NCBI GenBank assembly: GCA_964291315.2
Contig: OZ219753.1
Span: 1,792,001 to 1,856,000, forward strand
Source: Candidatus Poribacteria bacterium
Lineage (GTDB): Bacteria > Poribacteria > WGA-4E > WGA-3G
Length of the DNA: 64,000 bases
Direction of reading: 5' to 3'
Shown piece after piece: positions 19,591-37,214 of this stretch. The notes beneath the pieces are model-generated. The model searched no databases. It was not told the DNA's origin and was given only the letters and a program-made list of their open reading frames with translations. The translations under genes and the position numbers were made by a program. Each line of letters opens with the position of its first letter. Positions within the stretch are counted from its first letter, which is position 1.

Positions 19591-19655
19591 TCATTATACA
19601 TTTATACGTTCGCGATAGTTGCCCTAAATCCGCTGCTCAAAACGAGAGAACGCAA

Positions 19656-20543
19656 ATGACAAAAGAAGAAATTATCCAGAAATTCCAAAACCTCAACGTA
19701 TGGAAAAGAGGGGACCAACGCGCCCCACACAAGCCGTTAGTTATTTTGTATGCAATCGGAAAATTACTGCGCGGTGAAGAAAGTCTTCTATACCGTGAGA
19801 TGGAGGAAGATATCCGAAACTTGTTGCGAAAGTTTGGACCCACACGCCGCAGTTACAGTCCACAATTCCCATTTTGGCGATTGCAAAACGACGAAATATG
19901 GCAGGTGTCTGAAACAGATAGTATCACGCTCACCAGTGGTGGAGATCCTCGTGTAACCGACCTTAGAGCTTATAACGTCTTCGGCTCTTTCAAAAACGAT
20001 ATCCGTACACATCTCCAAAATGATTCTGAACTCACATGTGAAATCGTCCGTATTGTGTTAAACGGCCACTTTCGACCGTCACTCCACACAGATATTCTAC
20101 ACGCTGTTGGAATTGAACTCCCGATCCTAACTGTCGGCGCGAGAACGCTAACATCGGATTTCTGGGAAGATGTCCTCAGAGCCTACCAGTACAGATGTGC
20201 CGTCTGCGGATTTGACCTGCACTTAGGCCTCCAACTCATCGCAATAGAAGCCGCCCACATCAAATGGCCTCAAGCGGGTGGCCCGAATTCAGTAGAAAAT
20301 GGTTTAGCTCTCTGTTACCTACACCAAAAACTATTTGACCTTGGTGCATTTACTTTATCACCAAAATTAAATTTACTTGTATCAGAATCCACAAATGGAT
20401 CCCATGGTCTTAAAGAATGGTTGATGGACTTTCATGACAAGCCGATCCGTTTCCCGCAAAGGCAAGCATATTACCCAAACGAAGATTTCATACAGTGGCA
20501 TCTCAGAGAAGTTTTCAAAGCCCCTTATAGAGAAATAGGTTGA
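19656..20543 (+). CDS. Phosphorothioated-DNA-binding (SBD)-HNH restriction endonuclease
   Basis: N-terminal WKRGDQRAPHKPL...FPFWRL (sulfur-binding-domain-like); C-terminal CAVC...EAAHIKW...NGLALCYLHQKLFDLG HNH. Confidence 0.8.
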   Translation: MTKEEIIQKFQNLNVWKRGDQRAPHKPLVILYAIGKLLRGEESLLYREMEEDIRNLLRKFGPTRRSYSPQFPFWRLQNDEIWQVSETDSITLTSGGDPRVTDLRAYNVFGSFKNDIRTHLQNDSELTCEIVRIVLNGHFRPSLHTDILHAVGIELPILTVGARTLTSDFWEDVLRAYQYRCAVCGFDLHLGLQLIAIEAAHIKWPQAGGPNSVENGLALCYLHQKLFDLGAFTLSPKLNLLVSESTNGSHGLKEWLMDFHDKPIRFPQRQAYYPNEDFIQWHLREVFKAPYREIG

Positions 20544-20991
20544 CGTTCACTATTAATCCTGTGCTGCTAGACTAAAATTTTCAACGAAAGGGAATCACCG
20601 AGCTTTTCTCCTGAAAAAATGCTTGACATAATTAGCAGTTTAAGATAAAAAAGGCAGAAAATAGGCAATCCAAATAGGATCAAATTTAATCGACAAGACG
20701 CATGAAAAATTTATACACTTACACTCCAATTAAAACCTCAAGGTTACTTAGCAAAAATTGTCGCTCCCGGCAACTTTCTAGCCTCCTAATACCCGCTGCT
20801 GCCGGTATGCTGTCGCAAACAATCACACATTACCCCCCCCACTCCACTAACGATAAGCAAACCGTCCAAAACACATCCGCGCCGCCTGCACCTACTCGCT
20901 GTTTCCTCGAACGGCAGGCGACGCTCTCTTTCGTTCTCATACTTTCCGCTGTCTGTTTCAATTTCTTACCTAGGGTCGGGAGGCATGAAAC

Positions 20992-21963
20992 GTGATTAAC
21001 ACCTCCACAATTCACCCACACATAATCAAACCCTCTTTCACAGGGCATCAGACATTTCCCTTTCGATATACATGGCTGAAGAAGGGCGTGGATGCCGTAG
21101 CAGCAGATCCAGCCATCTTTTTTTACGAAGATGCCTCTGTCACCTTAGGGGTCGGAAAGAACATGATCGGCTCCATCCGCCACTGGTGCCGGGCAGCCGG
21201 ACTCGTCAAAGAGGTTACAAGGCAGCAAGCACAACTCACTATGAACCTTAACGAGAGGCCAAGCAGTAACCGACGCGGACAATTTGTGCCTACTCAACTC
21301 GGTAAAGCTATTTTTGATAAAAGCGGGTTTGATCCCTACCTCGAAGACCCCGCAACCTTATGGCTGATCCACTGGCAGATCGCAACGAATACACAGCAAG
21401 CAACCGCATGGTATTGGGCGTTCAACATCCTAAGAAGCAACCAATTTACACCCCAGACCTTCGCAAGAGATGTCTACAAATGGGCACAACAACAAAAACA
21501 GTCTATGCCCCGCGTCTCTGAAAATACACTTCAGCGAGATGTCAACTGCTTTATCCGTACCTACTGTCAGGCACGCCACGCTCCTACCGTCATTGAGGAC
21601 ACTTTCGCCTGCCCCCTCGTCGAACTCAACTTGATCGCTGAACTACCAGACAGCGACGCTTATGAATTTCAGCGAGGCGATAAAGAGACGCTGCCGATCG
21701 AGATCGTGGCCTGGGCGCTAAATACGTTCTGGCAAAACCACTTCGCCCCGAGAGAATCACTCTCGTTCTCTGACCTGATGTACGCGCCATCAAGCCCCGG
21801 ACGAGTCTTCAGATTAGATGAGGACACAATGACCACCTATCTCGAGAACCTAGAAGAACTCACAAACGGCACATTCCAATACGATGAAACAGCAGGCCTG
21901 AAGCAGCTGTATCGACACGCAGATTTTAACGCGATGAAACTTTTAGAGAGGTACTATGGCTAA
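20992..21963 (+). CDS. DUF4007 family protein (SspB-like)
   Basis: FTGHQTFPFRYTWLKKG, LGVGKNMIGSIRHW, DPYLEDPATLWLIHW; GTG start with GGGAGG SD. Confidence 0.9.
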   Translation: MINTSTIHPHIIKPSFTGHQTFPFRYTWLKKGVDAVAADPAIFFYEDASVTLGVGKNMIGSIRHWCRAAGLVKEVTRQQAQLTMNLNERPSSNRRGQFVPTQLGKAIFDKSGFDPYLEDPATLWLIHWQIATNTQQATAWYWAFNILRSNQFTPQTFARDVYKWAQQQKQSMPRVSENTLQRDVNCFIRTYCQARHAPTVIEDTFACPLVELNLIAELPDSDAYEFQRGDKETLPIEIVAWALNTFWQNHFAPRESLSFSDLMYAPSSPGRVFRLDEDTMTTYLENLEELTNGTFQYDETAGLKQLYRHADFNAMKLLERYYG

Positions 21964-24900
21964 CCCCAGACTGTCGGAACTTTTTCACATCACGGAACGT
22001 TTCCAACGATCCATACATCTGGAACGCGATTTTTATACCGAAAACGCATTAGAGGGTTACATTCTTACCGTCAAGGCACGAGAAATTCTCACACGCCTTA
22101 TCGAAGCACAAGAGAACCACTCCACATCAAAAGCATGGTCACTCACCGGCCCCTACGGCTCCGGCAAATCCGCATTCGCGCTCTTCACCGCAAAGCTGCT
22201 CGGGAACTCCAACGCCTCCACAACGCAACAGGCCCAAGAACTGCTGAAGCAAGCGGACGTTTCACTCTACCAACGGTTCATGAGCACTCACAATAACGGC
22301 AAGAACATGTCATCAGGTTTCTGCTCCGTGCTCATCTCCGGCGAACGCGCACCCATCACACTTGCACTTCTACGCGGATTAGAGCACGGACTTAACGCTT
22401 TCAACCGAACAGCACCACACGCAACACTCCGCAGGAAAATTAGAGCCCTCTTAAAAACAGCCGAACAAGGCACACCGCCCAACGCCTCCGAAATCACCCA
22501 ACTATTTGAGAGCGCGACAGACGCTATCAGAAAAAAAGGCGGGACAGGCCTCCTTTTAATCATCGATGAACTCGGGAAATTCCTCGAATACGCTGCACAC
22601 TCGCCCGCACACGGGGACGTGTTCGTCCTCCAAACCCTCGCTGAATGCGCCACTCGTACCCAGCAGACACCGCTATTTCTACTGACCCTCCTGCATCAAT
22701 CCTTTGAACAATACGCAAACAGAATCGCAAAATCGCAGCGCGAGGAGTGGGCAAAAGTTCAAGGCAGATTCGAAGATATCGCCTTTGTAGAACCTGCAGA
22801 ACAGATACTACGACTCATCGCCTCCGCTATCCAAAATAGACCCATAGCAATAGATAAAAAACCGATTGACCCCGCTGAAATAAACCTCAAGCCCAATCAA
22901 CTTTCCGAGAATGAATTTAACCAGCTCCTACAAAATTGCCGGCCTCTCCATCCAATTGTAGCCCTTATCCTCGGTTCAATCTTCCGGCGGTTTGCACAGA
23001 ATGAACGATCCCTCTTCGCTTTTCTCAGCTCAAACGAACCTTATGGATTACAAGAATTCCTCTCAAATCAACGTTACGACGGAAACGTCTTGCCGATGCT
23101 GTCAGTCGCCGATCTATACGATTACCTCAACACCAGCATCGTACATCGACTTTACGCCTCACGCGACGGCGAAAAATGGGTGGAAATTGAGATGGCAATT
23201 CGCCGATTGACTGACCCCTCGCCAACGCTCGTTAAACTCATCAAAACCATAGGACTGCTCAATATCGTCGGAGAGGTGAGCACACATCTGAAAGCCTCAA
23301 AACCTATACTCCGTTTCGCCCTCAATGACCACACCGAAAGCTTCGAGCAGGAATTCCAGAACGCAGTGGCACTATTACAAAAACGATCCATTGTTGTCTA
23401 CCGCCGCTATAACGACATTTATACCCTCTGGGAAGGAAGCGATATCGACATTGAGGCGAAACGCCATGAAGCCGAGGGAAACCTCGACCCAAACGAAACG
23501 CTCACAACGTATCTTTCAGAACTCACACCTCCACGACCCCTCATCGCCCGTCGACATCTTTTCGAAAAAGGCACACTCCGCTATTTCACCGTCCGTTACA
23601 CCGACATTGAAGATTTCGACGCGAAACTGAACGAACCCCTAGACGGGGCAGACGGGCTTGTCCTTTACGCGCTCCCCGGAGGCGAAGATGAACTCGAGCC
23701 GTTGGTTGAAAAGGCAACTGATGCACACACCGCCCAATGCAAACAGACCCTAATTGCAATCCCACGCTCCACCCACTTTCTCCGCGAGGCTGTCACCGAG
23801 CTCGCCTGTCTACGCTGGATCTCAGAAAATACACCCGAACTCGAAGGCGACGCCGTCGCAAGACGAGAACTCGCTATCCGATGGGTAGAAGCAGAACGCG
23901 GCGTTGACAATCAACTCAATATTATCTTCAGCGGCGACACCGAAGCACCATGCAGATGGTTCCACAAAGCACATGAAGTAGACATCACATCTCAACGCAC
24001 CAGAAACGAACACTTGTCAAAAATGTGTGACGCAACCTATCATAAAACACCGCTTATTCGAAATGAACTCATTAACCGACGGAAAATCTCCGGCACCGTA
24101 ACAGCCGCTCGAAAGAAATTAATCCAAGCTATACTCGAAAAGGCGGATCAAGAAAACCTCGGCATCACCGGCTACCCTGCTGAAATGAGTATCTACCGAT
24201 CCCTCTTAGTCGAAACAGGCATACACCGTAAAACTTCCGGCATCTGGGGGTTTCACCCACCCAAACCAGATACCGATAAAACCAGCAGCACCCACACATG
24301 GCGCGCAATCGAGTCCTTCCTCGAAACGTGCGAAACCGATCGCCAACCTATCACCCAACTCTACGAAAATCTGATGGCACCTCCGTTCGGACTTCGAGAA
24401 GGCCTACTGCCAATTCTGCTCTGCACCGTAATGCAGCATTACAAAACAGAAATCGCACTCTATGAAAACGGATCCTTTATAGCCGACTGGTCAATGCCCG
24501 TCTTTGAAAGACTGCTGAAAATACCACACCAATTCGAACTGAAACGGTTTCGGATGACAGGCATCCGTTCCGAGCTGTTCACACAATTCGCAGAAACGTT
24601 CAACCACGCAACAACATCCGAAAACCCACAGCTATTAACAGTCATCAAACTGCTCATGCGCGCTATAGCACAACTACCGAAATACACGCTGACAACACAA
24701 GAATTGAGTGATAATGCAAAAAATCTCCGCAGAATCGTCCTGAACGCCCGTGAACCCGACGCACTCCTCTTTAAACAATTGCCCGAAACGTTCGGATTCC
24801 CCGCTTTTAGCACGGAAATGCCAACAGACGCAAAGGTCATTTCAGATTTTCTCAGCACACTGAAAAACGCACTCGCCGACTTGCAGCGCGCCTACGAACG

Positions 24901-25450
24901 CCTACTGAACCTTGTAGAGCAGACCCTAGTAAGGGCGTTCAACCTAACACCGACACCGGAAGAACTCCGCAACGCCCTCGTCGCCCGAGCCGAACCTCTA
25001 TTACCGATAACGATTGAAACCGATCTCAAAGGCTTCTTAATCCAAATCTGTAGCAGCGGACACGACTTCACGAACTGGATCGAGGCAATCGCCACCTATC
25101 TCGCTAAAAAACCGCCAGCCTCATGGATAGATACCGACAGGGCACAATTTGAAATCAACCTTTCTCAACTCGCGAGGAAGTTCCGGCATTTCGAAGCAAT
25201 CGCCTACGAAAAGCGAGCACATACCGATCCAACCGCAGGCGAACCCATTCGAGTCGGTATCACCGCACCAAACCAAACCGAGCAAGAACGCGTGGTTACC
25301 TTGACCGCAACTGCTGATGAACAAACAACTGAAATGGAACACGACATCCGAAAAGTTTTTGACAAATTCAATGTAGACGATAACCCTGAACTTCATATCG
25401 CAATCCTTGCACGAATTTCACAAAAATGGATACGACAACTCGACGAATAG
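21956..25450 (+). CDS. Large P-loop ATPase (SspC/BrxC-like)
   Basis: RFQRSIHLERD, Walker A GPYGSGKS, Walker B LLIIDELGKFLE, EWAKVQGRF, FAQNERSLFAFL; overlaps the DUF4007 stop. Confidence 0.85.
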   Translation: MANPRLSELFHITERFQRSIHLERDFYTENALEGYILTVKAREILTRLIEAQENHSTSKAWSLTGPYGSGKSAFALFTAKLLGNSNASTTQQAQELLKQADVSLYQRFMSTHNNGKNMSSGFCSVLISGERAPITLALLRGLEHGLNAFNRTAPHATLRRKIRALLKTAEQGTPPNASEITQLFESATDAIRKKGGTGLLLIIDELGKFLEYAAHSPAHGDVFVLQTLAECATRTQQTPLFLLTLLHQSFEQYANRIAKSQREEWAKVQGRFEDIAFVEPAEQILRLIASAIQNRPIAIDKKPIDPAEINLKPNQLSENEFNQLLQNCRPLHPIVALILGSIFRRFAQNERSLFAFLSSNEPYGLQEFLSNQRYDGNVLPMLSVADLYDYLNTSIVHRLYASRDGEKWVEIEMAIRRLTDPSPTLVKLIKTIGLLNIVGEVSTHLKASKPILRFALNDHTESFEQEFQNAVALLQKRSIVVYRRYNDIYTLWEGSDIDIEAKRHEAEGNLDPNETLTTYLSELTPPRPLIARRHLFEKGTLRYFTVRYTDIEDFDAKLNEPLDGADGLVLYALPGGEDELEPLVEKATDAHTAQCKQTLIAIPRSTHFLREAVTELACLRWISENTPELEGDAVARRELAIRWVEAERGVDNQLNIIFSGDTEAPCRWFHKAHEVDITSQRTRNEHLSKMCDATYHKTPLIRNELINRRKISGTVTAARKKLIQAILEKADQENLGITGYPAEMSIYRSLLVETGIHRKTSGIWGFHPPKPDTDKTSSTHTWRAIESFLETCETDRQPITQLYENLMAPPFGLREGLLPILLCTVMQHYKTEIALYENGSFIADWSMPVFERLLKIPHQFELKRFRMTGIRSELFTQFAETFNHATTSENPQLLTVIKLLMRAIAQLPKYTLTTQELSDNAKNLRRIVLNAREPDALLFKQLPETFGFPAFSTEMPTDAKVISDFLSTLKNALADLQRAYERLLNLVEQTLVRAFNLTPTPEELRNALVARAEPLLPITIETDLKGFLIQICSSGHDFTNWIEAIATYLAKKPPASWIDTDRAQFEINLSQLARKFRHFEAIAYEKRAHTDPTAGEPIRVGITAPNQTEQERVVTLTATADEQTTEMEHDIRKVFDKFNVDDNPELHIAILARISQKWIRQLDE

Positions 25451-25462
25451 AGAGGTCAAACT

Positions 25463-26299
25463 ATGGAACAAGAAACCCGTCATCTGCTGGGGCTCTCCGG
25501 CGGAAAAGATAGCTCCGCACTCGCAGTCTACATGCGCGACAGAGTACCAGAGATGGAATATTTCTTCTCTGATACCGGCAAAGAGCTCCCCGAAACATAT
25601 GAATTCTTAGACCGATTAGAGGCGTTCCTCGGCAAACCGATCGTCCGCCTCAACATGAACCCTGATGCCAGTCAGAACAGAGACTTCGATCACTGGTTGA
25701 AACTTTACGGCGGACTCCTGCCGTCCTCACAAGTGCGATGGTGCACCGTTAACCTCAAAATCAAACCTTTTGAGGAATACGTCGGCGAAGACAGGGCATA
25801 CCACTACATCGCCATCCGCGCCGATGAAGACCGCATCGGCTACAAACCGCCCAAAGTGTCCGCAATCCATAACATTGAACCCAAATACCCCTTCAAAGAG
25901 GACGGCATCACCAAAGAAGACGTCTACCGAATCCTCGAGGAAAGCGGGGTCGGACTCCCCACGTATTACGACTGGCGCACACGCTCAGGCTGCTACTTCT
26001 GCTTCTTCCAGCGCAAATCCGAATGGGTCGGACTCTTAGAGCAGCACCCTGACCTCTTCGAACTCGCAAAATCGTATGAGAAATTCAACACCGAAACAGG
26101 CGAACGATTCACATGGTGCCAAGGCGAAAGCCTAGAGGAACTGTCAGCACCAGAACGAATCGCACAAATCAAAGCAAACACCGAAAAAGCGAAAGCCTCT
26201 AAGAGAGCCGCAAAACCGAATCAGCGACTGATAGAGATACTCACCGATGTCTATGACGATGAAGATGACGAGGAACCCTGTCTCATCTGTCATAAGTGA
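25463..26299 (+). CDS. PAPS reductase family protein (SspD/DndC-like)
   Basis: PP-loop SGGKDS, DTGKELPE, RWCT, RSGCYFCFFQ, C-terminal CLICH. Confidence 0.9.
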   Translation: MEQETRHLLGLSGGKDSSALAVYMRDRVPEMEYFFSDTGKELPETYEFLDRLEAFLGKPIVRLNMNPDASQNRDFDHWLKLYGGLLPSSQVRWCTVNLKIKPFEEYVGEDRAYHYIAIRADEDRIGYKPPKVSAIHNIEPKYPFKEDGITKEDVYRILEESGVGLPTYYDWRTRSGCYFCFFQRKSEWVGLLEQHPDLFELAKSYEKFNTETGERFTWCQGESLEELSAPERIAQIKANTEKAKASKRAAKPNQRLIEILTDVYDDEDDEEPCLICHK

Positions 26300-26344
26300 C
26301 ATCAAATAAAATGCTACCCTATTTAGGAGGAAACAAACAATGGG

Positions 26345-28444
26345 ATGACACTTCGGGCAATACCCGATATTCGACCCCTTTATATACTGCCAAAGGACCC
26401 CGCTATAGAGGAGGTCCTAATTCCATGCTTTCAATCCGCAGGCTCTGTTGATTGCATGATGGGCTTCTTTTCGAGCGAAATTCTGGTGTCGCTTGCACCA
26501 GGTCTAGCAACCTTCATTAATAGCGCAGAGGGGAAGCTGCGCCTAATTATCAGTCCGCTGCTCCGAACCGAAGACAGAGACGCAATAGCCAACGGAATAG
26601 CCTCGCCTGAAGATATCGCGAACGCAACTCTGGAAAACTTTGTTGTTACCGAAAACGCCATCGCACAACATACGTTGAAATGTCTCTCGTGGATGTTACG
26701 TTCCGGACGCTTGGAAATCAAAATCGTCTTGATGAAAGATGCCCTTTTCCATCCGAAAGTCTGGCTCTTTCGCCGGGGGGACGACGTAATAGCAGCACAC
26801 GGATCCAGCAACATGACATACGCCGGCGTCCAGAAGAATATCGAGCAAATGTCCATCTCTAAATCGTGGGCGGACACGAATCAACAATACATCGCAGAGA
26901 AACTTTGTGACCAATTTAGAGAACTCTGGGGAAATCAAGATACCAATTGTACTGTCGTTTCAATCCCGGAAGCACTGAAGGAAAATCTATTGAGCACTTA
27001 TAATCCAGTCCTCCCACCAACTGAAGAAGAATTTCATACGCTTCGCGAGCAGGCTTGCGACCTTGACAGAGACAGATCGTCGCGCCCCACATTCACTATA
27101 CCCCGACACCTTCGATTTGAGGAGGGGCCTTTTGAACATCAAGGACGAGCCGTTAAAGCATGGTGTGAAGCCGGCCATCAAGGCGTTTTGGAAATGGCAA
27201 CCGGCTCAGGAAAAACAGTCACCGCTATGATTTGCACACACCGACTCTACAGTGTGGAGAAACCACTTCTAGTCGTTGTGTCCGCGCCTTACATCCCCCT
27301 TATTCAACAGTGGTGTGATGAAATTTCACCCTTCGGACTCAAGGCGGTTAACCTATCTGAAGCAAGCGGGGCAAGAAAACGAGCCGCCAAGCTTAAAAAA
27401 ATAGAGCGGAGACTCCGATTCGGCAGGAGCAGCATCGAAATTGTCGTCGTTTCTCACCGCACACTTTGCAGTAGCGAGTTTAAAGATGAACTCGAAAAAT
27501 TTGATTTTAAAACGCTGCTTATCGCCGATGAAGTCCACAACCTCGGCAGCGAGGGATTCATAGCGAATCCTCCTGACTTCTTTGACCACAGATTAGGATT
27601 ATCTGCTACCCCAATTCGGCAGTACGATGAGGAAGGAACCGAGCAGCTGTTCGCCTTTTTCGGCCCTATCGTTTTCCAATTCACCCTTGAGGAAGCAATC
27701 GGGCGATGTCTCGTTGAATACGAATACTACGTCCATACAGTAAAACTCACAGAAGATGAAATGGAGAAATGGTACGCACTCACAGAACAGATCAAGAAAA
27801 ACGCTTGGCGACAAGAAGGTGAAGACAGTGAAGATGAGTACCTTATGAAGCTCCTACGAGACCGACGCGCACTCTTAGAAAACGCGGAAAATAAGATTGA
27901 TGCCTTGGAAAAAGTTTTGAGACCCAAAGATCTCCAAAGGCTCCGATACACCCTGATTTATACCTCTGCTACAGGACCGCAGCAGCTCGAAGATGTCAAC
28001 GCCCTACTGAACGAACACAGCGTACTCTTCCATCAACTGACACATAAAGAAGCAAGAAACCGTAAGAAAACCGCACAGATTCTCCAAGACTTCCGAGAGG
28101 GAACGTTGAAGATCCTAACCGCGAAACGCGTGCTTGATGAAGGCGTGAACATCCCAGAAATTGAGAGGGCTTTCATCCTCGCCAGCACCACAGTAGAGCG
28201 ACAATGGGTTCAGCGGCGCGGCAGGCTGCTCCGCACATGTCGCGAAACCGGTAAAACGCACAGTGAAATCCACGACTTCATCGCCTTGCCGCCCGATTTG
28301 GACAACATAGACGACAGGGCCCGTAGGTTAGTAGAATCCGAACTCAAGCGAGTACGAGCATTTGCTTACCTCGCAAAAAACTTTGGCAGACCTGATGGCC
28401 CCTTAAACCACCTCGACCAACTGGTTAAAATCCTTTATACATAG
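26345..28444 (+). CDS. PLD-nuclease + SF2 (ResIII/DEAH) helicase fusion (PbeA-like, PT-associated restriction enzyme)
   Basis: FHPKVWLF...HGSSNMT (HKD-type); MATGSGKT, IADEVHN, GLSATP, LDEGVNIP, QRRGRLLR. Confidence 0.88.
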   Translation: MTLRAIPDIRPLYILPKDPAIEEVLIPCFQSAGSVDCMMGFFSSEILVSLAPGLATFINSAEGKLRLIISPLLRTEDRDAIANGIASPEDIANATLENFVVTENAIAQHTLKCLSWMLRSGRLEIKIVLMKDALFHPKVWLFRRGDDVIAAHGSSNMTYAGVQKNIEQMSISKSWADTNQQYIAEKLCDQFRELWGNQDTNCTVVSIPEALKENLLSTYNPVLPPTEEEFHTLREQACDLDRDRSSRPTFTIPRHLRFEEGPFEHQGRAVKAWCEAGHQGVLEMATGSGKTVTAMICTHRLYSVEKPLLVVVSAPYIPLIQQWCDEISPFGLKAVNLSEASGARKRAAKLKKIERRLRFGRSSIEIVVVSHRTLCSSEFKDELEKFDFKTLLIADEVHNLGSEGFIANPPDFFDHRLGLSATPIRQYDEEGTEQLFAFFGPIVFQFTLEEAIGRCLVEYEYYVHTVKLTEDEMEKWYALTEQIKKNAWRQEGEDSEDEYLMKLLRDRRALLENAENKIDALEKVLRPKDLQRLRYTLIYTSATGPQQLEDVNALLNEHSVLFHQLTHKEARNRKKTAQILQDFREGTLKILTAKRVLDEGVNIPEIERAFILASTTVERQWVQRRGRLLRTCRETGKTHSEIHDFIALPPDLDNIDDRARRLVESELKRVRAFAYLAKNFGRPDGPLNHLDQLVKILYT

Positions 28445-28455
28445 CGGAGGATACT

Positions 28456-28698: not shown

Positions 28699-30798
28699 AT
28701 GAAGTTAATCAGCGCAAAATTTCAAAACTTTCGCCTGCTACGAGATCTAGAGTTGGAGTTCTCGACAAGTGACGACAAAAAACTAACTGTAATTCGAGCG
28801 TCGAATGAAAGCGGAAAAACGACTATCTTAAACGGGCTTCAGTGGGCCCTCTACGGTGATGACGTGTTACCGAATAGAGGTAGAGGATACCGAATGTTCC
28901 CAATCGATTGGAAGAGCTCCGACGGAGGGGCAATCCCGATATCTGTGCAAGTTGATTTCGAGAAAACAACCTCTCGATATCGTCTTATCCGATCGGTGGA
29001 GGAGACAACAGACGGACACAGACAAAATTCGAAGGTAGAATTGTTTGAATTAGCAGAAACCGGGGCTAACCGCATTAATCCACCAGAAGCACAGATCGCT
29101 CGACTGTTGTTACCTCTGAATTTGCGCGAGGTGTTTTTCACCGACGGAGACCGAGCTCTGAATTTCATTGAAGCAGACTCTCAAACAGATAAACGTGGGC
29201 GGATCCAAGGAGCCATTCAATCTCTGTTAGGACTTGATGTGATTGATACTACCTTCAAACATTTAAAAAGGACAATTTCTGGGCTCAATAAAGACTCGAG
29301 GAATATCGGACCTGATACAGATCTCAGCCAAATTGTTACAGAATTGGAGGAGATAAATAAAAATATCGAACACCTTGAAGATAAAGTAGACGATGCGAAA
29401 CAGCAATTCGAGGCAATAGGACACAGTTTGGCAGATATCGATAGGGACATTGAAGCCGCACTGGTTAAGGGAGACCAAGAGGATCTTAATCGTAGGCTGA
29501 AAAGAACTGAAACAGAACTGGATGATCTCGAAAACCAAGAAAAAGAATTGGAAACCGAACACTCACAGCTGTTCAGAAAACCGCTCTTATTCCGAGAGCT
29601 GCTCACACCGGTTTTAGAACAAAGTTTCAAGAAATTGGATGAACTGCGCGATCAAGGGAAACTTCCGAGTCCGACTATTCCCGTACTTGTAGAACGACTC
29701 GCAGGGGTTACATGTATCTGTGGCGAATCATTGGACCAACACTCAGAAAGCGGGAAACAACGTAGAGAGCATATTGAACGCCTCATTAAGGAAAGTGAGA
29801 AGGCAGATGACCTCCAAAAATGCCTTACCGATCTCGATTACGGTTCATTGGAACTGAAACCAATAAAGAACGCCCATAACGACTCCTGGATCGATGAATA
29901 CAGTAAGGTGTCAACGCTTCATCATGAACTTGAAACGAAACGCGAGGAATTAGAAAAGGAACTCGCAGCACTTGAAGTTCAACTGGAAGGCATAGGAAAT
30001 ACCGATATTCAAAAACTTCGCACTACCAAACAGGAACACACTATCCAACGCGAAAGTCTGAACAACACCCGTATAGAGCGTGAAAGAGAACTCGAACGCC
30101 TAAAGGAACGGAGCAGATCCTTGACAGCAACACGTAATAACCTTCTAGCTCAGCAAAGAAAAGGGGCGCTGATACTAGCAAGATTAGATGCGACGCGCGA
30201 CATACAGCAGATCCTCGAAAACGCCTACAACCACATCGTAAACGAAGAATTGCAAAAAGTGAGTCAGCTGATGAACACCCTCTTCCTCGAAATGATTGGC
30301 GCGGATGCCGAACAAGGAGCAATCATTCAGAAAGCAGAGATTAGTGAAGATTTTGATATCCTCGTCTATGGCCCGAGTAAGCGCCCTTTGAACCCTGATA
30401 AAGATTTAAATGGTGCCTCTCGGCGCGCACTCACCACCGCATTTATTCTCGCTCTCACTAACGTAAGCGAAGTGGAGGCACCAAATGTGATTGACACACC
30501 GCTTGGAATGATGGATGGGTATGTCAAACGCTCTGTTCTCAAAACCGCCATCAAAGAAAGTTCACAGCTTATTCTCTTTCTAACGCGTTCTGAAATTAAA
30601 GACTGTGAGGATATTATAAAGAACGAGGCAGAATGTGTGACAACCATTACAAATTCCGCACATTACCCCAATATATTGGTGAACGATCCACATATAAACG
30701 AACCTCAGGCGTTCCGATGTGAGTGCCAGGATCTCGGCGAATGCAAAATGTGTAAGAGGCGAACCGATGTTGAGGTAGAAATCCAAACGGAAACTTAG
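28699..30798 (+). CDS. DndD/SbcC-like coiled-coil ABC ATPase with CxC hook (PbeC-like)
   Basis: FQNFR, Walker A NESGKTT, FFTDGD, coiled coils with central CICG, signature LNGASR, VIDTPLGMMD, C-terminal CEC...CKMC. Confidence 0.88.
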   Translation: MKLISAKFQNFRLLRDLELEFSTSDDKKLTVIRASNESGKTTILNGLQWALYGDDVLPNRGRGYRMFPIDWKSSDGGAIPISVQVDFEKTTSRYRLIRSVEETTDGHRQNSKVELFELAETGANRINPPEAQIARLLLPLNLREVFFTDGDRALNFIEADSQTDKRGRIQGAIQSLLGLDVIDTTFKHLKRTISGLNKDSRNIGPDTDLSQIVTELEEINKNIEHLEDKVDDAKQQFEAIGHSLADIDRDIEAALVKGDQEDLNRRLKRTETELDDLENQEKELETEHSQLFRKPLLFRELLTPVLEQSFKKLDELRDQGKLPSPTIPVLVERLAGVTCICGESLDQHSESGKQRREHIERLIKESEKADDLQKCLTDLDYGSLELKPIKNAHNDSWIDEYSKVSTLHHELETKREELEKELAALEVQLEGIGNTDIQKLRTTKQEHTIQRESLNNTRIERERELERLKERSRSLTATRNNLLAQQRKGALILARLDATRDIQQILENAYNHIVNEELQKVSQLMNTLFLEMIGADAEQGAIIQKAEISEDFDILVYGPSKRPLNPDKDLNGASRRALTTAFILALTNVSEVEAPNVIDTPLGMMDGYVKRSVLKTAIKESSQLILFLTRSEIKDCEDIIKNEAECVTTITNSAHYPNILVNDPHINEPQAFRCECQDLGECKMCKRRTDVEVEIQTET

Positions 30799-30807
30799 GA
30801 GATTGAT

Positions 30808-31311
30808 ATGGCACAACAATACAACAACCCTTTTTTAAATATGAGTGTTGTTTCACTTGCTACACAGCGACACCACTACGACCGTTACTGCCAAGCAGGA
30901 CAGAAACATATAGTGGATATGAGTCCATTTCCCAGGAAGGTAGACTTCTGGTTTGCAGCACTAGCATTGGCAGCACGTAAGAATCTCAAACCTATCGATT
31001 TAACGAAAGAGAAAACTGTTAACATTATTAGTGGCGATATTTTTAACACCGACGGCTGGCAGGCACAAGCCATAATGTTAATTGCAACAGCCGTCAAAGG
31101 GGATTTAAAGATCGTTCTCGAGCCAAGCCAAATGATGAAGATTGCTAACGGACTCGCAGCCGCAGGCGTTCCACACATTGTGAAAATGCTAGATGCAGGA
31201 CCCTCAAAACCGAGATGGAACCTCTCCGATGAACTCGCAGAACTGCTGCAATCTGATGCTGTTACCGAGGTAAAATCGGATCATCAACGACTCGCGGAAG
31301 CCCTGCGATGA
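30808..31311 (+). CDS. Hypothetical protein (PbeD/DndE-position)
   Basis: 167 aa, AGGAG SD, last gene of the tightly packed operon; no motif recognised with certainty. Confidence 0.7.
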   Translation: MAQQYNNPFLNMSVVSLATQRHHYDRYCQAGQKHIVDMSPFPRKVDFWFAALALAARKNLKPIDLTKEKTVNIISGDIFNTDGWQAQAIMLIATAVKGDLKIVLEPSQMMKIANGLAAAGVPHIVKMLDAGPSKPRWNLSDELAELLQSDAVTEVKSDHQRLAEALR

Positions 31312-31499
31312 TTCTATAACCGCACCGAAAATACCCAAAATATGGGATAATTGAGGGTTTTCGGCTCGGTAATGATATAACGCCCTCTTTGTGATGATAA
31401 CTGAGGCCGCTAGTGCCTCGGGAGTTTCCAACTTCGCGAAATCATTATTAAACAGAAAACTCTCCTTTTTTGATGCTCGGCACGAAACTCTGAATCAAC

Positions 31500-33956
31500 A
31501 TGAACACAAAGCAACTTTTCGACCAACTTTATCGATCTAAAACCGAAGACGATGTCGATCGAGTCATCAACGCACATCCGGACATTTTCGAAGCCGATAA
31601 AAACTGGCATCCCCTCGGGGGCAACGAAAACAACTTCGGTGTCATCGAAAATCAACAATCAACACCGATTGCAGCTTTGATTGAAAAGATCACAAACGCT
31701 ATTGATGCCGTTTTAATGAAAAAATGTCTGGAAGCAGGCATCGATCCCAAATCCAAGCAAGCTCCCAGCTCAATGGAAGAAGCCAAAGTCAAATTTTTTG
31801 CAAATCACAGAGATTGGGATCTCCCACGAACCCGAAAACAACAAGCAGAAAATATCCAAATTATCGCTGACGGCCCAAGGCTGAAACCTTCTTTGATTAT
31901 TTATGACGACGGTGAAGGGCAACACCCAGAAGAATTTGAGAAAACGTTCTTGTCATTATTGGGCGGCAATAAGACAGAGATCCACTTTGTCCAAGGCAAA
32001 TACAACATGGGCGGGAGCGGCGCTATTGTGTTCTGTGGCAAAAAACGATACCAACTCATCGGTTCTAAGCGATATGATAATACAGGCAAATTTGGATTCA
32101 CCCTAATCAGAGAACATCCGCTCACCGAAACAGAACAAACGGTTAAGAGAAATACATGGTATGAATACCTGAAAATCGGTGGCGTAATTCCATCTTTCCA
32201 CGCTGAACAGCAAAGCCTGGGGCTCTATAATAGAACATTTACCACCGGGACAATTATTAAACTGTACTCCTACGATTTGCCACCCGGAATCCGATCGGTT
32301 ATTTCCAGAGACCTGAATCAAGGCATCAACGAGTACCTGTTTGAACCCATTTTACCGGTGATTACTGTTGATAAAAAAGAACGTTACCCCGACGATCTAA
32401 ACCTTGAAAGAGACGTATACGGACTCAAACGCAGATTAGAACGGGAAGATAACAGGTACATTGAAGAAGCTTTTTCCGAAGATTTCAACGACACGCTTTT
32501 TGGAAAAATGAAGGTGACCTGTTATCTCTTCAAAACGAAAATAGATGCTCAATCTGTTAAAGAGAGTAAAGGTACAATTCGGAGAGAATTTTTTAAGAAC
32601 AACATGTCCATCCTATTTTCGATCAACGGACAGGTTCATGGACACTACACCTCAGAATTCATAACCCGATCTCTCAAATTGAATCTACTTAAAGAGCATC
32701 TTCTCATTCATGTCGATTGCACAAACATGAACTACGATTTCCGTAAAGAGTTATTCATGGCATCTCGAGACCGTTTAAAAAGCGGCGAGGAAAATAATGC
32801 CTTACGAAAGTTATTAGCAGACAAACTCGGAGCGAAAAATGGACGCTTGCAGCAAATACAGAAACAACGTAAAGATTCAATCGCGGTAGAAAGTGAAGGG
32901 GCGAAAGACTTAATAAAATCTTTCGCACGGAATTTTTCACGAAATCCAGAATTGTTGAAGCTGTTGGATCAAACGTTAAATTTCGACCTACCTCTTAAAA
33001 CGAACCAAAGCGCGAAAACCAACACGGCAACCAAACGAAATAAGATGGAGCAAGAACGCTTTAATCCAAAGCGATTCCCCGCACTTTTCAAACGCCGGAT
33101 ACAAGGCAAAAAAGATAAAGAGGTCGTTATAATACCGCTTGGCGACGAAAAAACAATTCTCTTTGACACGGACGTTGAGAACAACTATTTTGATCGTACA
33201 GAAGAACCTGGCGAATTGAAAATCGCCATTCTTGGTTTCAAAGAAAATGATACGGAAGACGGAAACGCCCCAGGAGAAGCGGATCAGATTGAAAATGTAT
33301 TCAATGTGCGAAAAAGCAGCCCCCAGAACGGAACAATCAAGCTCCACCTCAATCCAAAGGAGGCGGTAAACGTTGGGGATGAAGTAAAGATCAAAGTTAG
33401 CTTGGAAGATCCAACCGGCGGGGAATTTAAGGAAATATTTTGGGTAAAGATCACTGAGAAGAAAGCCCCCACACAGCCTTCACCGAAACCTGAAAAAAAG
33501 GAAACCCCAACCTTAGGATTGCCTGAGTTAATATACGCCTATAAAGAAGAAAAACCAGATAGAGAAGGTGTATCTTGGGAAAAATTTGAGGAGAACACCA
33601 CTAAACAGATGGATTACAATACCGTGATGCAACCTATAGCAGAAGGTGAGAAGTTAGAGCGTGTTTATATCAACATGGACAGTAAGGTTTTGAAAAACCT
33701 CAGAGCCAAAACCAGAAACCCCAGTCAGGAGCAATTAGAGACAACTAATAAAAGGTACATCGCCGCTGTATATTCCCACACGCTGTTTTTGTACGCAATC
33801 ACCAAAGCACATAAATACGGAATTGTGAAAGAGGAAAACGGCACAGATTCCGATGTGGAATTAGACATTTACCTCAAAGACCTCTTCGACTCTTACTACG
33901 CAGAATTCCTTCTGAACTACGGTTTCGATGAAATCATGCAATTGTTAGAAGACTAA
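31500..33956 (+). CDS. GHKL (MORC/MutL-like) ATPase domain protein
   Basis: Bergerat-fold motifs EKITNAIDA, IYDDGEGQ, QGKYNMGGSG, GTIIK; long uncharacterised C-terminus. Confidence 0.8.
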   Translation: MNTKQLFDQLYRSKTEDDVDRVINAHPDIFEADKNWHPLGGNENNFGVIENQQSTPIAALIEKITNAIDAVLMKKCLEAGIDPKSKQAPSSMEEAKVKFFANHRDWDLPRTRKQQAENIQIIADGPRLKPSLIIYDDGEGQHPEEFEKTFLSLLGGNKTEIHFVQGKYNMGGSGAIVFCGKKRYQLIGSKRYDNTGKFGFTLIREHPLTETEQTVKRNTWYEYLKIGGVIPSFHAEQQSLGLYNRTFTTGTIIKLYSYDLPPGIRSVISRDLNQGINEYLFEPILPVITVDKKERYPDDLNLERDVYGLKRRLEREDNRYIEEAFSEDFNDTLFGKMKVTCYLFKTKIDAQSVKESKGTIRREFFKNNMSILFSINGQVHGHYTSEFITRSLKLNLLKEHLLIHVDCTNMNYDFRKELFMASRDRLKSGEENNALRKLLADKLGAKNGRLQQIQKQRKDSIAVESEGAKDLIKSFARNFSRNPELLKLLDQTLNFDLPLKTNQSAKTNTATKRNKMEQERFNPKRFPALFKRRIQGKKDKEVVIIPLGDEKTILFDTDVENNYFDRTEEPGELKIAILGFKENDTEDGNAPGEADQIENVFNVRKSSPQNGTIKLHLNPKEAVNVGDEVKIKVSLEDPTGGEFKEIFWVKITEKKAPTQPSPKPEKKETPTLGLPELIYAYKEEKPDREGVSWEKFEENTTKQMDYNTVMQPIAEGEKLERVYINMDSKVLKNLRAKTRNPSQEQLETTNKRYIAAVYSHTLFLYAITKAHKYGIVKEENGTDSDVELDIYLKDLFDSYYAEFLLNYGFDEIMQLLED

Positions 33957-34133
33957 CCTCCCGAACAAAGCATTAACACTACTTTTCCGCAAGCAAAATA
34001 AACCTTGCCCCCAACTATCATAAATGCCCTACCCCACCCTAATTCTTGCACACACAAAATTCCCCTTGTAATTCCACACGACTCCGTGTACGATAAAATA
34101 CTGTTTTTATACCCTCAACGACGGAGGAAATAG

Positions 34134-37100
34134 ATGCCCCATCTCAACATCAAGCCTATGCATAAACCTATCAAAACTTACTACGCCGAACTTGAAAAAT
34201 ACGCACAACTCGGTGAGCAAAATGAAGGCACTGTCCGTGCAGCCTTCCAACACCTGCTCCAACACTACTGCCACCAAGCCAAACTTACACTGCTCTGCGA
34301 AAAAACACACTACACACCCGAGAAAAAACGCATAATCCCGGACGGGGAAGTCGTGGACACCTACGGACTACCGCACGGCTACTGGGAAGCAAAAGATACA
34401 CACGATGACCTGCTCCTCGAGGCTGCCAAGAAGTTTGACGCAGGCTACCCCTCCAAGAACATCGTCGTGCAGTCGCCCACACGCGCCCTGCTTTATCAGG
34501 ACGGGCAGCTGCAGCTCGACGCCGACATCACTGATCCGTGCAACCTCGTTCAGGTGCTCCAAACCTTCTTTGCGTATCAGGAGGCAAACATCGCCGCGTG
34601 GCACACCGCTGTCGCTGATTTCAAGGAAGCCGTGCCCGCACTCGGAGCGAAGTTAGTGAGGCTCATCGAGACCGAGCGTCGAGACAACGTGCGGTTTCAA
34701 GAGGCGTTCCACCAGTTCCATGTGCAGTGCTGTGCCTCCATCAACCCGGGTCTCTCCATTGCTGCTGTGGAGGAGATGCTGATCCAACATCTCCTCACCG
34801 AACGCATCTTCCGCACGGTGTTTGATAACCCTGACTTCACGCGCCGGAATATCATCGCCCGGGAAATAGAAAACGTCATAGATGTGCTGACGGAACGGAC
34901 GTTGAACCGGTCGGAGTTTCTTCGTCCTTACGACCCGTTCTACGCGGCGATAGAGAGCACCGCTGCGACCCTCACAGCGTTCTCACAGAAGCAGCACTTC
35001 CTCAACACCGTCTACGAGCAGTTCTTTCAAGGGTTCTCCGTCAAGGTTGCCGACACGCACGGCATCGTCTACACGCCGCAGCCGATCGTGGATTTCATGG
35101 TCAACAGCGTGCAACATCTATTAGAGACCGAGTTTGATCGTTCGTTATCGGATAGCGGTGTGCATATCATAGACCCGTTTGTCGGCACGGGCAACTTCAT
35201 CGTGCGGTTGATGCAGGTCCTGGATCCGATCTCTCTGGAGCGAAAATACACCGCCGATCCGCCTGAACTCCAGTGTAACGAGGTGATGCTGTTGCCGTAT
35301 TACATTGCGAGTCTGAATATTGAGCAGCAGTTTTACACTGTGACGCGCCGGTATTCGGCTTATGAGGGCATCTGCCTTGTAGATACGTTTGAGGTATCGG
35401 AGGCTCGGCAGATGGCGCTGTTCGCGCCGGGGAACACGGAGCGGGTTGAGCAGCAGAAGCGGACGCCGATGTTCGTAGTGATCGGCAATCCGCCGTATAA
35501 TGCGGGTCAGAAGAGAGAGAGCGACAACAACAAGAATAGGAAGCACCCGATCGTAGATGCGAGAGTTGCGGAGACGTATGTCAAAGGCTCTGCAGCACGG
35601 AACCCCAATAAGCTCTACGATCCGTATGTGAAGGCGATCCGGTGGGCCTCCGATCGTATTGGAGAGGAGGGCGTTGTGGCACTGGTAACGAATAACAGCT
35701 TTTTGGACGGCATCGCGTTTGATGGGGTGCGAAAGCACCTTGCGGCAGACTTCGATGCCCTCTACGTTCTCGACTTAGGCGGAAATGTGCAGCGCGGATT
35801 AAAGGTCTCTAAAGCGAATGTATTCAACATTCGGATAGGGGTGAGTATCAATCTATTCGTGAAAAACAGAGACAGGTCATCAGAGCAGCCGCGTATCTTT
35901 TATTATCGCACGGATGAGTTGTGGGATAGAGATCAGAAGTTTGCGTTTCTGAATAAATGTCAGCATGTGGGCGGTGTTGCGTGGCAGTCCATTGAACCCG
36001 ATGCGCGGCACGCGTGGCTAACCGAAGGGCTGGCACCTGAGTTTGAGACCTTTCTTCCGATAGGGACTAAGGCATCAAAGACGGCAAAAAATGAGGTACA
36101 AGATGTCTTTTTTAAAACCTACAGCAATGGTGTGCAAACGGCTCGCGATGCGTGGGCTTACAATTTCAACCGAGACGCACTCACTGAAAATATAAGCAGG
36201 ATGATTGAAAATTACAACGCAGAAGTCGCGCGTTGGACACAACGAACAAATAGGGAGGCGGCCGTTGATAATTTTCTGATTTCCGATGCCACGAAGATCA
36301 AGTGGAGTTCGACGTTAAAGCGGAAGCTACAGAGCGGTCAGAACACAGCATTTACAGAGGCAAATATCCGTTCCAGCCTTTATCGCCCCTTTACGAAATC
36401 CAACCTCTACTTTGACCGAATGATGAACCATAGGGTAGGAGGCTTTCCATCTATCTTCCCCACCCCAGAGACTGAATCAGAAAATTGGGTCATTTGCGTC
36501 AGCGTGACACTAGAAAAACCCTTTACTTGTTTGATGACTGCTTGTATTCCTGAATTTGTAGTAACGGGCGGGTTTGGATCACCAACCCAATGCTTTCCAT
36601 TCTACACCTATGACGAAGACGGCGCAAATCGCCGCGAAAATATCACCGATTGGGCATTGACAGAATTTCGATCTCATTACAAAGACGACAACATCAGCAA
36701 GTGGGACATCTTCCACTATACCTATGGGCTCCTGCATCATCTAGACTACCAAAAGAAATACGAGGCGAACCTCAAGCGCGATCTGCCGCACATCCCCTTC
36801 GCCACAGACTTCTGGGCGTTTGCTACCGCAGGCGCGCAACTCGCAGAGCTCCACGCTAACTACGAATCTCAACCCGAATATGAAGAGCTCAAGTTGATTC
36901 AGAACCCCGAGGTGCCGCTTAACTGGCGCGTGGAGAAGATGAAACTCTCCAAAGACAGAACACAGTTGACATATAACGACTTCTTGACACTTGCCGACAT
37001 CCCGCCCGAAGTGTTTGCGTATCGGTTAGGCACTCGTTCGGCGTTGGAGTGGGTGATAGATCAATATCGCGTCAAAAGGGACAAGTGGAGTGGGCTGGTC

Positions 37101-37214
37101 AGCGATCCGAATTGTGCGGAGGCACCGCGCTATATTGTGGAGTTAATTGGCAAGGTAATTACGGTGAGTTTAGAGACGGTGGCAATCGTTGAGAAGCTGC
37201 CACCGATACCGTAG
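34134..37214 (+). CDS. Type IIG / ISP-like restriction-modification enzyme (REase + m6A MTase + TRD, no helicase)
   Basis: PDG...YWEAKD (PD-D/ExK), GIVYTPQPIVDF, DPFVGTGNF, IGNPPYN, LYRPFTK, ISP-type C-terminus (DIFHYTYGLLH...SALEWVIDQY). Confidence 0.9.
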   Translation: MPHLNIKPMHKPIKTYYAELEKYAQLGEQNEGTVRAAFQHLLQHYCHQAKLTLLCEKTHYTPEKKRIIPDGEVVDTYGLPHGYWEAKDTHDDLLLEAAKKFDAGYPSKNIVVQSPTRALLYQDGQLQLDADITDPCNLVQVLQTFFAYQEANIAAWHTAVADFKEAVPALGAKLVRLIETERRDNVRFQEAFHQFHVQCCASINPGLSIAAVEEMLIQHLLTERIFRTVFDNPDFTRRNIIAREIENVIDVLTERTLNRSEFLRPYDPFYAAIESTAATLTAFSQKQHFLNTVYEQFFQGFSVKVADTHGIVYTPQPIVDFMVNSVQHLLETEFDRSLSDSGVHIIDPFVGTGNFIVRLMQVLDPISLERKYTADPPELQCNEVMLLPYYIASLNIEQQFYTVTRRYSAYEGICLVDTFEVSEARQMALFAPGNTERVEQQKRTPMFVVIGNPPYNAGQKRESDNNKNRKHPIVDARVAETYVKGSAARNPNKLYDPYVKAIRWASDRIGEEGVVALVTNNSFLDGIAFDGVRKHLAADFDALYVLDLGGNVQRGLKVSKANVFNIRIGVSINLFVKNRDRSSEQPRIFYYRTDELWDRDQKFAFLNKCQHVGGVAWQSIEPDARHAWLTEGLAPEFETFLPIGTKASKTAKNEVQDVFFKTYSNGVQTARDAWAYNFNRDALTENISRMIENYNAEVARWTQRTNREAAVDNFLISDATKIKWSSTLKRKLQSGQNTAFTEANIRSSLYRPFTKSNLYFDRMMNHRVGGFPSIFPTPETESENWVICVSVTLEKPFTCLMTACIPEFVVTGGFGSPTQCFPFYTYDEDGANRRENITDWALTEFRSHYKDDNISKWDIFHYTYGLLHHLDYQKKYEANLKRDLPHIPFATDFWAFATAGAQLAELHANYESQPEYEELKLIQNPEVPLNWRVEKMKLSKDRTQLTYNDFLTLADIPPEVFAYRLGTRSALEWVIDQYRVKRDKWSGLVSDPNCAEAPRYIVELIGKVITVSLETVAIVEKLPPIP

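Follow-up and report, generated by a model that had tools for sequence, protein, structure and literature searches.

Parts of the gene island analyzed here, a candidate phosphorothioate (PT) defense island at positions 19581-37214 of a 64,000-nucleotide stretch of a Poribacteria genome (hereafter the window), resemble described SspBCD-based PT systems, the DndCDEA-PbeABCD system and the CxC ABC ATPase systems. The SspABCD-SspE system was reportedly introduced by Xiong et al. in 2020 (Nat Microbiol), and CxC systems are said to have been first defined by Krishnan et al. in 2020. The haloarchaeal DndCDEA-PbeABCD system is antiviral in a PT-dependent manner; all four pbe genes are needed, and a PT-marked virus escaped (Xiong et al., 2019; PMC6459918; here and below, statements attributed to articles by PMC or bioRxiv number refer to the accessible portions of those articles). 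CxC systems combine with modification modules in a "mix and match" manner (Rakesh, Aravind and Krishnan, 2024; PMC10853773, section 16); the partners listed are DndD-centered PT genes, cytosine methylases or none, and SspBCD is not mentioned in the accessible portion of that article. In the SspABCD-SspE and SspBCD-SspFGH systems one writer can serve two effectors with additive effect, and the cysteine desulfurase SspA can be replaced by IscS (PMC8092258). Among 2,678 sspBCD modules, those partnered with SspE or SspFGH amounted to 196, 199 and 36 cases (PMC8092258), so that a first-pass annotation of the window was inaccurate in naming SspE or SspFGH as the usual partner of SspBCD. In Acinetobacter baumannii 5,518 of 5,530 Ssp loci lack sspE (PMC12421847).

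In the window, an SspBCD writer and a Pbe-type module stand together as seven genes in the order sspB-sspC-sspD-pbeA-pbeB-pbeC-pbeD, packed into one tight string (20992-31311) with successive spacings of -8, 12, 45, 11, 0 and 9 bp. The string belongs to a series of ten intact open reading frames (ORFs), all on the plus strand, to which all coordinates of window genes given below refer unless stated otherwise. The first-pass annotation had already recognized the ten co-oriented genes and a core with gaps of at most 45 bp or overlaps, and its domain calls agree with identifications by the Pfam, PADLOC and NCBIfam hidden Markov models (HMMs) used here. As in DndCDEA-PbeABCD, the Pbe genes lie directly beside a PT writer, the window's PbeA and PbeC match PADLOC Pbe models, and the effectors follow the same order with similar sizes: a helicase-nuclease, a protein of ~70-80 amino acids (aa), a coiled-coil ABC ATPase and a protein of ~150 aa (PMC6459918). 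In contrast to DndCDEA-PbeABCD, the writer is SspBCD and not DndCDE(A), and DndC is absent from the genome, in which the sole genes of PAPS-reductase fold are one CysH-like gene and sspD; moreover, identity between the PbeA clade of the window and the second PbeA class in its phylum is only 32-33%, and neither the Pbe models nor those of DndE match the two small proteins that stand in for PbeB and PbeD. The same four genes recall the HKD-SF2 (superfamily 2) helicase, small fast-evolving protein, CxC ABC ATPase and small DndE-like partner of the CxC systems (PMC10853773), from whose listed partners the SspBCD writer differs.

Full-text literature searches found no description of an SspBCD-Pbe pairing or of an Ssp linkage of the 818-aa GHKL ATPase family that is also encoded in the island; earlier depictions of either, for the pairing also in supplements, may exist. 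The two papers found to name both SspBCD and PbeABCD list them as separate systems, and no statement pairing the two appears in the accessible portions of PMC12707154, PMC13223576, PMC8053081 and PMC12137116. A survey of sspD gene neighborhoods mentions, in the section concerned, BREX genes only (bioRxiv 10.1101/2024.06.03.597175, section 5), and strains with PT genes plus pbeA-D have been counted without separating dnd from ssp writers (PMC7464106). No PADLOC model spans the whole set; the Ssp and Pbe models match separately, which agrees with the first-pass annotation in not assigning the island to one described system. Each module is of a known kind; new, as far as found, are the SspBCD-Pbe pairing and the Ssp linkage of the GHKL family.

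The writer consists of SspB (20992-21963), a DUF4007 protein (PF13182, 304.9 bits; PDLC02769, 330 bits) whose gene overlaps that of SspC by 8 bp; SspC (21956-25450), a BrxC-like P-loop ATPase of 1164 aa (PDLC02779, 1117.6 bits) with the Walker A motif GPYGSGKS and the Walker B motif LLIIDE, in which K71, D204 and E205 are invariant in 37/37 relatives; and SspD (25463-26299), a PP-loop enzyme of PAPS-reductase fold (PDLC02782, 387.6 bits; PF01507), whose SGGKDS motif and cysteines 94, 177, 180, 273 and 276 are invariant in 43/43 relatives. Between 19312 and 37421 no cysteine desulfurase (SspA) is encoded. IscS/SspA-like genes occur elsewhere in the genome, two of them strong matches (C4:402374 and C4:1645521); the IscS/SspA model also matches in all 14 control genomes and is therefore not specific. 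Since IscS can substitute for SspA (PMC8092258), the absence of SspA from the cluster is not disqualifying. Like the SspABCD-SspE and SspBCD-SspFGH systems, the island has the three-gene writer, with SspA or IscS possibly acting from elsewhere (PMC8092258); it differs in its effectors, which are Pbe-type genes, an SBD-HNH nuclease and a GHKL ATPase instead of SspE or SspFGH. None of the ten proteins matches the PADLOC models for SspE, SspF, SspG or SspH, and genome-wide SspE yields weak N-terminal matches elsewhere only (E 2e-11, model positions 11-119 of 793). BREX type 4 shares homologs of SspB (DUF4007), SspC (BrxC) and SspD (PAPS reductase) with the window (PMC12839542); in contrast to that system, the PAPS reductase and DUF4007 are here separate genes. 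Neither PglZ nor BrxL is present (no matches among the ten proteins), so that the label "BREX4-type" given to the writer in the first-pass annotation does not fit.

The first protein of the Pbe module, PbeA (26345-28444), combines an HKD (PLD)-type nuclease domain with an SF2 helicase; it matches PDLC02707 at 670 bits, TIGR04095 at 379.5 bits (under the cut-off of 600 of that model), and the Pfam domains ResIII, DEAD, Helicase_C and PLDc_2, the PLD call lying slightly under the Pfam cut-off (26.3 vs. 27 bits). Residues H136, K138, S154, N156, K290 and D395-E-x-H398 are invariant in 44/44 relatives; the Asp position of the HKD motif is not conserved (R143 in the window). The conserved HxK...GSxN site argues that PbeA cuts DNA, as Rakesh et al. 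proposed contrary to the original report of "no degradation" (PMC10853773, section 16). At the PbeB position follows an 80-aa protein (28456-28698), assigned by position and conservation: of the 34 loci with PbeA, PbeC and PbeD together, 33 have a tblastn relative (26-62% identity) in the corresponding place, and both position and size (80 aa vs. 66 aa) fit the described PbeB (PMC6459918). PbeC (28699-30798), a CxC-type coiled-coil ABC ATPase (PDLC02714, 200.8 bits; AAA_23), has the Walker A motif SGKT and the Walker B motif VIDTP, retained in 49-50 of 50 relatives, and the CxC zinc hook C339-I-C341, retained in 45/50. The 167-aa protein at the PbeD position (30808-31311) is conserved there across an alignment of 36 sequences (A1), and fits the described PbeD in position and size (167 aa vs. 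152 aa; PMC6459918); one of the 36 family members matches the PADLOC PbeD model (E 6.5e-4), and alignment A1 has no match in the PDB (best E 0.8). One relative of this protein (P0411) carries the precomputed Pfam accession PF27807.1, and this recent Pfam family may already cover the PbeD-position protein.

The joining of an Ssp-type writer to a Pbe-type module, as proposed in the first-pass annotation, is supported by its recurrence across genomes and phyla. The genome with the window (4.4 Mb in four contigs, 95% complete) was placed in a survey of 176 species genomes of its phylum, in which genes within 10 kb of the SspC gene were counted as adjacent to it. PbeA was divided into two classes on the basis of HMM score and identity, irrespective of gene context and prior to the adjacency count: the window-type class at 655-684 bits and a second class at 700 bits or more. 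Seven partial or broken PbeA matches belong to neither class (genomes G028, G095 with three, G117, G102 and G077), and among these the match on contig C160 of G095 adjoins SspC. Helicase-only matches of ~460 aa (E ~1e-51), which cover model positions ~235-666 only and occur once per genome and elsewhere, were set aside as a housekeeping paralog distinct from PbeA. SspC was found in 111/176 genomes and window-type PbeA in 24/176; in 20 of these 24 the two lie 1.1-4.0 kb apart, in three they lie on different contigs of fragmented assemblies, and in one (G030) PbeA is far from SspC, so that adjacency holds in 20 of the 21 genomes that have both on one contig. The second PbeA class, found in 26 genomes, adjoins SspC in 0/26; relative to the window its PbeA is 32-33% and its PbeC 21-24% identical. 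Within 10 kb of SspC, 40 of the 111 genomes have none of the three partners Pbe, SBD-HNH and GHKL, 24 have SBD-HNH only and another 24 GHKL only, 12 have Pbe with SBD-HNH, seven Pbe only, two GHKL with SBD-HNH and one another PbeA; all three partners stand together in one genome, that of the window. The "unusual module combination" of the first-pass annotation overstates the rarity of the Ssp-Pbe join, which is present in 20 of the 111 SspC-bearing Poribacteria genomes.

A second sample, 39 loci fetched with the window PbeA from one genome per species (L numbers below), gives SspB, SspC and SspD beside PbeA in 25 loci, SspC and SspD in one, SspD alone in five and none in eight, four of which are on contigs shorter than 7.5 kb. 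The outcome that the first-pass annotation named as a refutation, two halves that do not co-occur in other genomes, is thus not borne out in either sample (20/24 genomes, 25/39 loci). In the PbeA-anchored loci the placement of the Ssp genes relative to Pbe varies: they can precede the Pbe genes, follow them or run on the other strand. Outside Poribacteria the full join is found, judging from record titles, in Latescibacterota (L017, L020, L031), Dehalococcoidia (L024), Caldilineaceae (L039), Acidobacteriota (L038) and the cultured Oleispirillum naphthae (L028), in all in at least five phyla, including Chloroflexota and Alphaproteobacteria. The top PbeA match in the plasmid collection (47.9% identity) is on CP099618.1, a plasmid of a cultured Sphingomonadaceae strain (OTU29MARTA1), where cysteine desulfurase, DUF4007, 1100-aa protein and PAPS reductase genes are followed by those of a helicase, a 74-aa protein, an AAA ATPase and a 148-aa protein; these sspA-D and pbeA-D genes overlap or touch each other at their ends, with an integrase gene upstream. 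A single PbeABCD clade (PbeA 48-77% identical) accompanies three SspB/SspC lineages, between which SspC is 22-30% identical. Either the join would be old, with fast-diverged specificity subunits of the writer, or the same Pbe clade would have been recruited repeatedly, and both would point to functional coupling; that one Pbe clade is fused in an operon to another PT writer, not homologous to the first, favors genuine coupling.

Several related loci have other compositions. Second-class PbeA loci (L043-L050, L052) have no PT writer in the surrounding 10 kb; the second-class Pbe genes of L046 and L049 are followed by genes for a ~165-aa protein and a 428-aa DndB-like protein, a pair that is also found after GHKL in Ssp loci, and several second-class loci have an additional, divergently oriented PbeC-like gene. 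In L019 (identical to L051, G030:C1; 4951-9786), and also in L009, L037 and L042, SspD lies between two GHKL ATPases, one of 577 aa (HATPase_c_3/MzaB-like) and one of 638 aa (HATPase_c), and the set is directly upstream of PbeABCD; SspB and SspC were undetected within 20-22 kb with the window proteins as queries. This SspD/two-GHKL set may represent a different writer composition.

Upstream of the core, after a gap of 448 bp, lies the gene for an SBD-HNH endonuclease of 320 aa (19581-20543), which matches NF045808, the family of PT-DNA-binding restriction endonucleases, at 322 bits (cut-off 180), and HNH_2. The first-pass annotation began this gene at 19656 in the same frame and on the same strand, which is Met26 of the ORF that opens at 19581; frame and strand stand, and the start site is ambiguous because the NF045808 match begins only at residue 30. 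The SBD aligns with that of ScoMcrA (5zmo; E 7.5e-9), with H50-K51 at the position of H-R and F96-P97 at that of Y-P, so that in the pocket R is replaced by K and Y by F. Residues H50, K51, P97, W99, H226, N240 and H248 are invariant in 15/15 Ssp-adjacent copies, and the Tyr-equivalent position varies (Y, H, F or Q). The protein shares its two-domain architecture and the conserved sulfur-pocket and HNH residues with ScoMcrA, SprMcrA and EcoWI (PMC7461809); it differs from ScoMcrA in lacking the SRA domain, and its family differs from these enzymes in lying systematically beside a PT writer, whereas SBD-HNH enzymes are found near dnd writers in less than 3.6% (PMC7461809).

Downstream of the core, 188 bp after the PbeD-position gene, an 818-aa GHKL ATPase is encoded (31500-33956). 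Its match to PF13589 is weak (E 1e-3, under cut-off), and 20 of 52 relatives match this family; the Bergerat residues E62, N66, D69, D136, G138 and G140 are invariant in the 52 relatives. The C-terminal region of ~600 aa has no assigned fold; against the PDB the single sequence had no match, and the best match of alignment A2 was to a designed scaffold (E 0.11). Relatives were found in 31/176 genomes, in 27 of them within 10 kb of SspC and in the other four with contig limits, and all but one of the 29 adjacent copies have the orientation of SspC. The three closest homologs in the plasmid collection, from Hymenobacter (55.6% identity), Ensifer adhaerens (45.7%) and Devosia neptuniae (43.7%), all stand beside DUF4007, SspC and PAPS-reductase genes, and three distant plasmid homologs (25-28% identity) are not near Ssp genes. 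The GHKL ATPase, like the SBD nuclease, is therefore a recurrent neighbor of SspBCD (27/31 genomes and three plasmids; SBD-HNH, 39/78 genomes), which upholds the accessory status that the first-pass annotation gave to both. The family comprises 1,844 representative clusters at E <= 1e-3 and ranges from Poribacteria to Bacteroidota and Alphaproteobacteria; among the 39 PbeA-anchored loci it is absent, and other GHKL families occur in six of them. On plasmid pC of Ensifer adhaerens (L077) and the Devosia neptuniae plasmid (L078), the GHKL gene is accompanied beside SspBCD by genes for a "sensor histidine kinase" of ~780 aa and a hypothetical protein of ~640-680 aa, and this trio may be a distinct three-gene Ssp partner; "histidine kinase" genes have also been noted beside SspE in Acinetobacter (PMC7464106). 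A similar trio of GHKL (800 aa), 633-aa and Mrr-like genes follows PbeABCD in a Rhodospirillaceae locus (L021, 15055-20839). In Ssp loci without Pbe (L063, 9918-16826; L064, 9687-14056; L066, L069, L070, L073, L074), SspD and the 818-aa GHKL are separated or followed by accessory genes in mosaic fashion: these encode a 628- or 774-aa DndB-like protein, an additional GHKL of 577 or 640 aa, a protein of 208 aa, and a DndB-like pair of 162 aa plus 427 aa. With prokaryotic MORC/paraMORC GHKL proteins (Iyer, Abhiman and Aravind, 2008; PMC2292703) the window protein shares an N-terminal GHKL domain with an intact ATP site, a long C-terminal extension, and an encoding near restriction-modification (R-M) genes, helicases and HNH or HKD nucleases; what the sequence shows of this likeness is the GHKL ATP site, so that the first-pass term "MORC-like" is a tentative one, and an SspBCD linkage is not mentioned in the accessible portion of PMC2292703. 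By analogy, we propose that the protein could act as an ATP-driven DNA clamp or looping effector.

The last gene of the series, 177 bp downstream of the GHKL gene, encodes a type ISP-like or type IIG R-M enzyme of 1026 aa (34134-37214) with a coupler (PF22240, ISP_coupler), an N6-adenine methyltransferase domain (PF02384, N6_Mtase; NPPY at 452-455) and a C-terminal specificity domain (PF18135, Type_ISP_C, 345 bits). These parts are shared with type ISP enzymes, from which the window enzyme differs in lacking the SF2 helicase-like motor: Pfam finds no helicase domain, and the protein aligns with positions 732-1636 of the 1646-position model PDLC03597 and in full length with the 1024-position IIG model PDLC03621.

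From these comparisons we consider it likely that the stretch is a working PT-based defense island organized around one writer. SspBCD, with a cysteine desulfurase encoded elsewhere, would place a single-strand-type PT at a short motif on host DNA, and it is by this mark that the Pbe module would distinguish self from invading DNA: PbeC, together with the small PbeD, would scan or loop DNA, PbeA would translocate by its SF2 motor and cut or block unmarked DNA via its HxK...GSxN site, and the 80-aa PbeB could be a regulator. The SBD-HNH protein and the 818-aa GHKL would be additional effectors tied to Ssp, reading this PT mark or depending on it, and the IIG enzyme would be a separate methylation-based R-M enzyme in the same hotspot. 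Several points weigh against this account. CxC/Pbe modules occur without a PT writer in numerous bacterial taxa, and Rakesh et al. doubt that Pbe is a PT-dependent restriction partner (PMC10853773, section 16); the 26 Poribacteria genomes with second-class PbeA have no adjacent PT writer, and three window-type loci with full flanks (L027, L030, L035) have no Ssp genes. The 80-aa protein has no HMM match, and the 167-aa protein matches neither the PbeD model nor DndE (Pfam DndE against the genome); the role of the GHKL ATPase would follow purely from guilt by association. The survey genomes are kin, 111 of the 175 others being members of a single family and 64 of a single genus; the counts therefore overstate the number of independent events. 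Much of this would also suit a mere juxtaposition, in which a solitary SspBCD and a self-sufficient Pbe-type system, perhaps an abortive-infection or suicide device, act independently in a site that is a variable hotspot (the AKR-MutY-FGE site, AKR denoting aldo-keto reductase). We regard such independence as improbable, given that window-type PbeA lies beside SspC in nearly every genome that has both on one contig, that the join is kept across three SspBC lineages and several gene orders, and that the sspD-pbeA junction is short here (45 bp) and overlapping in CP099618.1, as expected for co-translation. At the other extreme, a single ten-component system that includes the IIG enzyme is very improbable: the ten genes are co-oriented, an IIG copy lies within ~2 kb of SspC in G160, G136 and G119 (among 150 matches listed of 488), and partial IIG matches are found downstream of Pbe genes in L004 and L022, yet the enzyme is absent from 37/39 PbeA-anchored loci, its domain content is that of a complete R-M enzyme by itself, and the outer genes are set off from the core and from each other by 448, 188 and 177 bp. 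The IIG family is, moreover, multi-copy and dispersed: it occurs in 146/176 genomes, usually with several copies per genome, and the window genome has four full-length copies (72-100% identity; 24 first-look candidates), the additional ones, at 2609189-2612254, 2894860-2897919 and 1118058-1121132 of G000:C4, being 88%, 87% and 72% identical to that of the window. For this reason the IIG enzyme, counted as a member of the system in the first-pass annotation, is probably an independent methylation-based R-M enzyme and a chance co-resident of the hotspot.

For the SBD-HNH protein the proposed island leaves a choice between two roles. It could be an SspE-like PT sensor-nuclease that is tied to the host's own mark, and would then differ from a classical type IV enzyme directed against that mark; or it could be an ordinary type IV enzyme against foreign PT, for example Dnd double-strand PT, that tolerates the host Ssp mark and is no Ssp effector, an alternative that we hold to be a substantial one, if somewhat less probable than its opposite. 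The type IV role is favored by biochemical precedent, since characterized SBD-HNH enzymes cleave PT-DNA and are seldom linked to dnd writers (PMC7461809), and it accords with the name of NF045808; among the 78 of 176 genomes with SBD-HNH above the curated cut-off, 28 have no SspC, and with SspC in 111/176 genomes PT-marked foreign DNA should be common in the community. The SspE-like role is favored by a linkage to SspC that is tight and co-oriented: of the 50 genomes that have both genes, 39 have them within 10 kb (in six they are on different contigs and in five distant), and all 41 adjacent copies are on the SspC strand, a median of 1.5 kb away from it and in two different arrangements (24 upstream, 17 downstream). 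In addition, nucleases of wHTH(SBD)+SAD+HNH composition in Dnd loci have been proposed as cognate restriction parts (PMC10853773).

The immediate neighbors of the island are a sulfatase-maturase gene on the minus strand to the left (18550-19311) and a PorV-like gene on the plus strand to the right (37422-38354), and the outer flanks are housekeeping genes (MutY, aldo-keto reductase, IspG, NAD synthase). The G+C content is 0.41-0.51 in the region vs. 0.54-0.56 in the left flank, and near-identical DNA to the region was found neither in E. coli genomes nor in the plasmid collection. The 448-bp gap upstream of sspB likely holds the operon promoter; scans of the region for consensus promoters and terminators gave no excess over shuffles. 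A 97-aa ORF in this gap (20702-20995, overlapping the sspB start), absent from the first-pass list, is probably not a gene: it belongs to no family, and tblastn against 39 related loci gave no match. Relatives have either of two contents downstream of AKR-MutY-FGE, Ssp with Pbe (L005, L006) or Ssp with GHKL (L063, L064, L068), and the island has the appearance of these two alternative sets of partners merged around a single retained writer. Loci L004, L005 and L006 carry SBD-HNH/SspBCD/PbeABCD, L005 and L006 additionally with the MutY-FGE left flank; after PbeD (L005 and L006, 15320-17800; L004, 15300-17771) they have a 455-aa protein of no family and a DndB-like protein of 359-369 aa, where the window has GHKL in place of this pair. 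Elsewhere in the window (12698-15484), a 928-aa DUF1156 putative DNA methyltransferase lies between aminotransferase and 3-keto-disaccharide hydrolase genes; no partner genes were identified for it among the annotated neighboring ORFs.

A broader reading, which we put forward tentatively and consider rather doubtful in its entirety, would make one PT writer the hub for three mechanistically different PT-reading effectors: an Ssp-dependent Pbe clade, an SBD-HNH nuclease that reverses its textbook role in being licensed or restrained by the host PT and not attacking PT-DNA, and the GHKL family as a previously unrecognized Ssp effector, often with a second, "histidine-kinase" GHKL and a ~640-aa protein. 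The systematic placement of a PT-binding nuclease next to the genes of a PT writer presents a paradox, hard to square with type IV logic. The SspBCD-Pbe pairing bears on the dispute between Xiong et al., for whom Pbe is a PT-dependent effector, and Rakesh et al., who doubt this role; the fused operon is carried by cultured hosts, on the Sphingomonadaceae OTU29MARTA1 plasmid and in Oleispirillum naphthae Y-M2, so that the question of coupling is directly testable. Most sspBCD clusters have no known restriction partner. The Pbe clade, SBD-HNH and the GHKL family each travel with SspBCD and are therefore concrete candidates for these missing partners; the GHKL family might explain some of the sspBCD clusters without SspE or SspFGH, for example those beside a "histidine kinase" gene in Acinetobacter baumannii.

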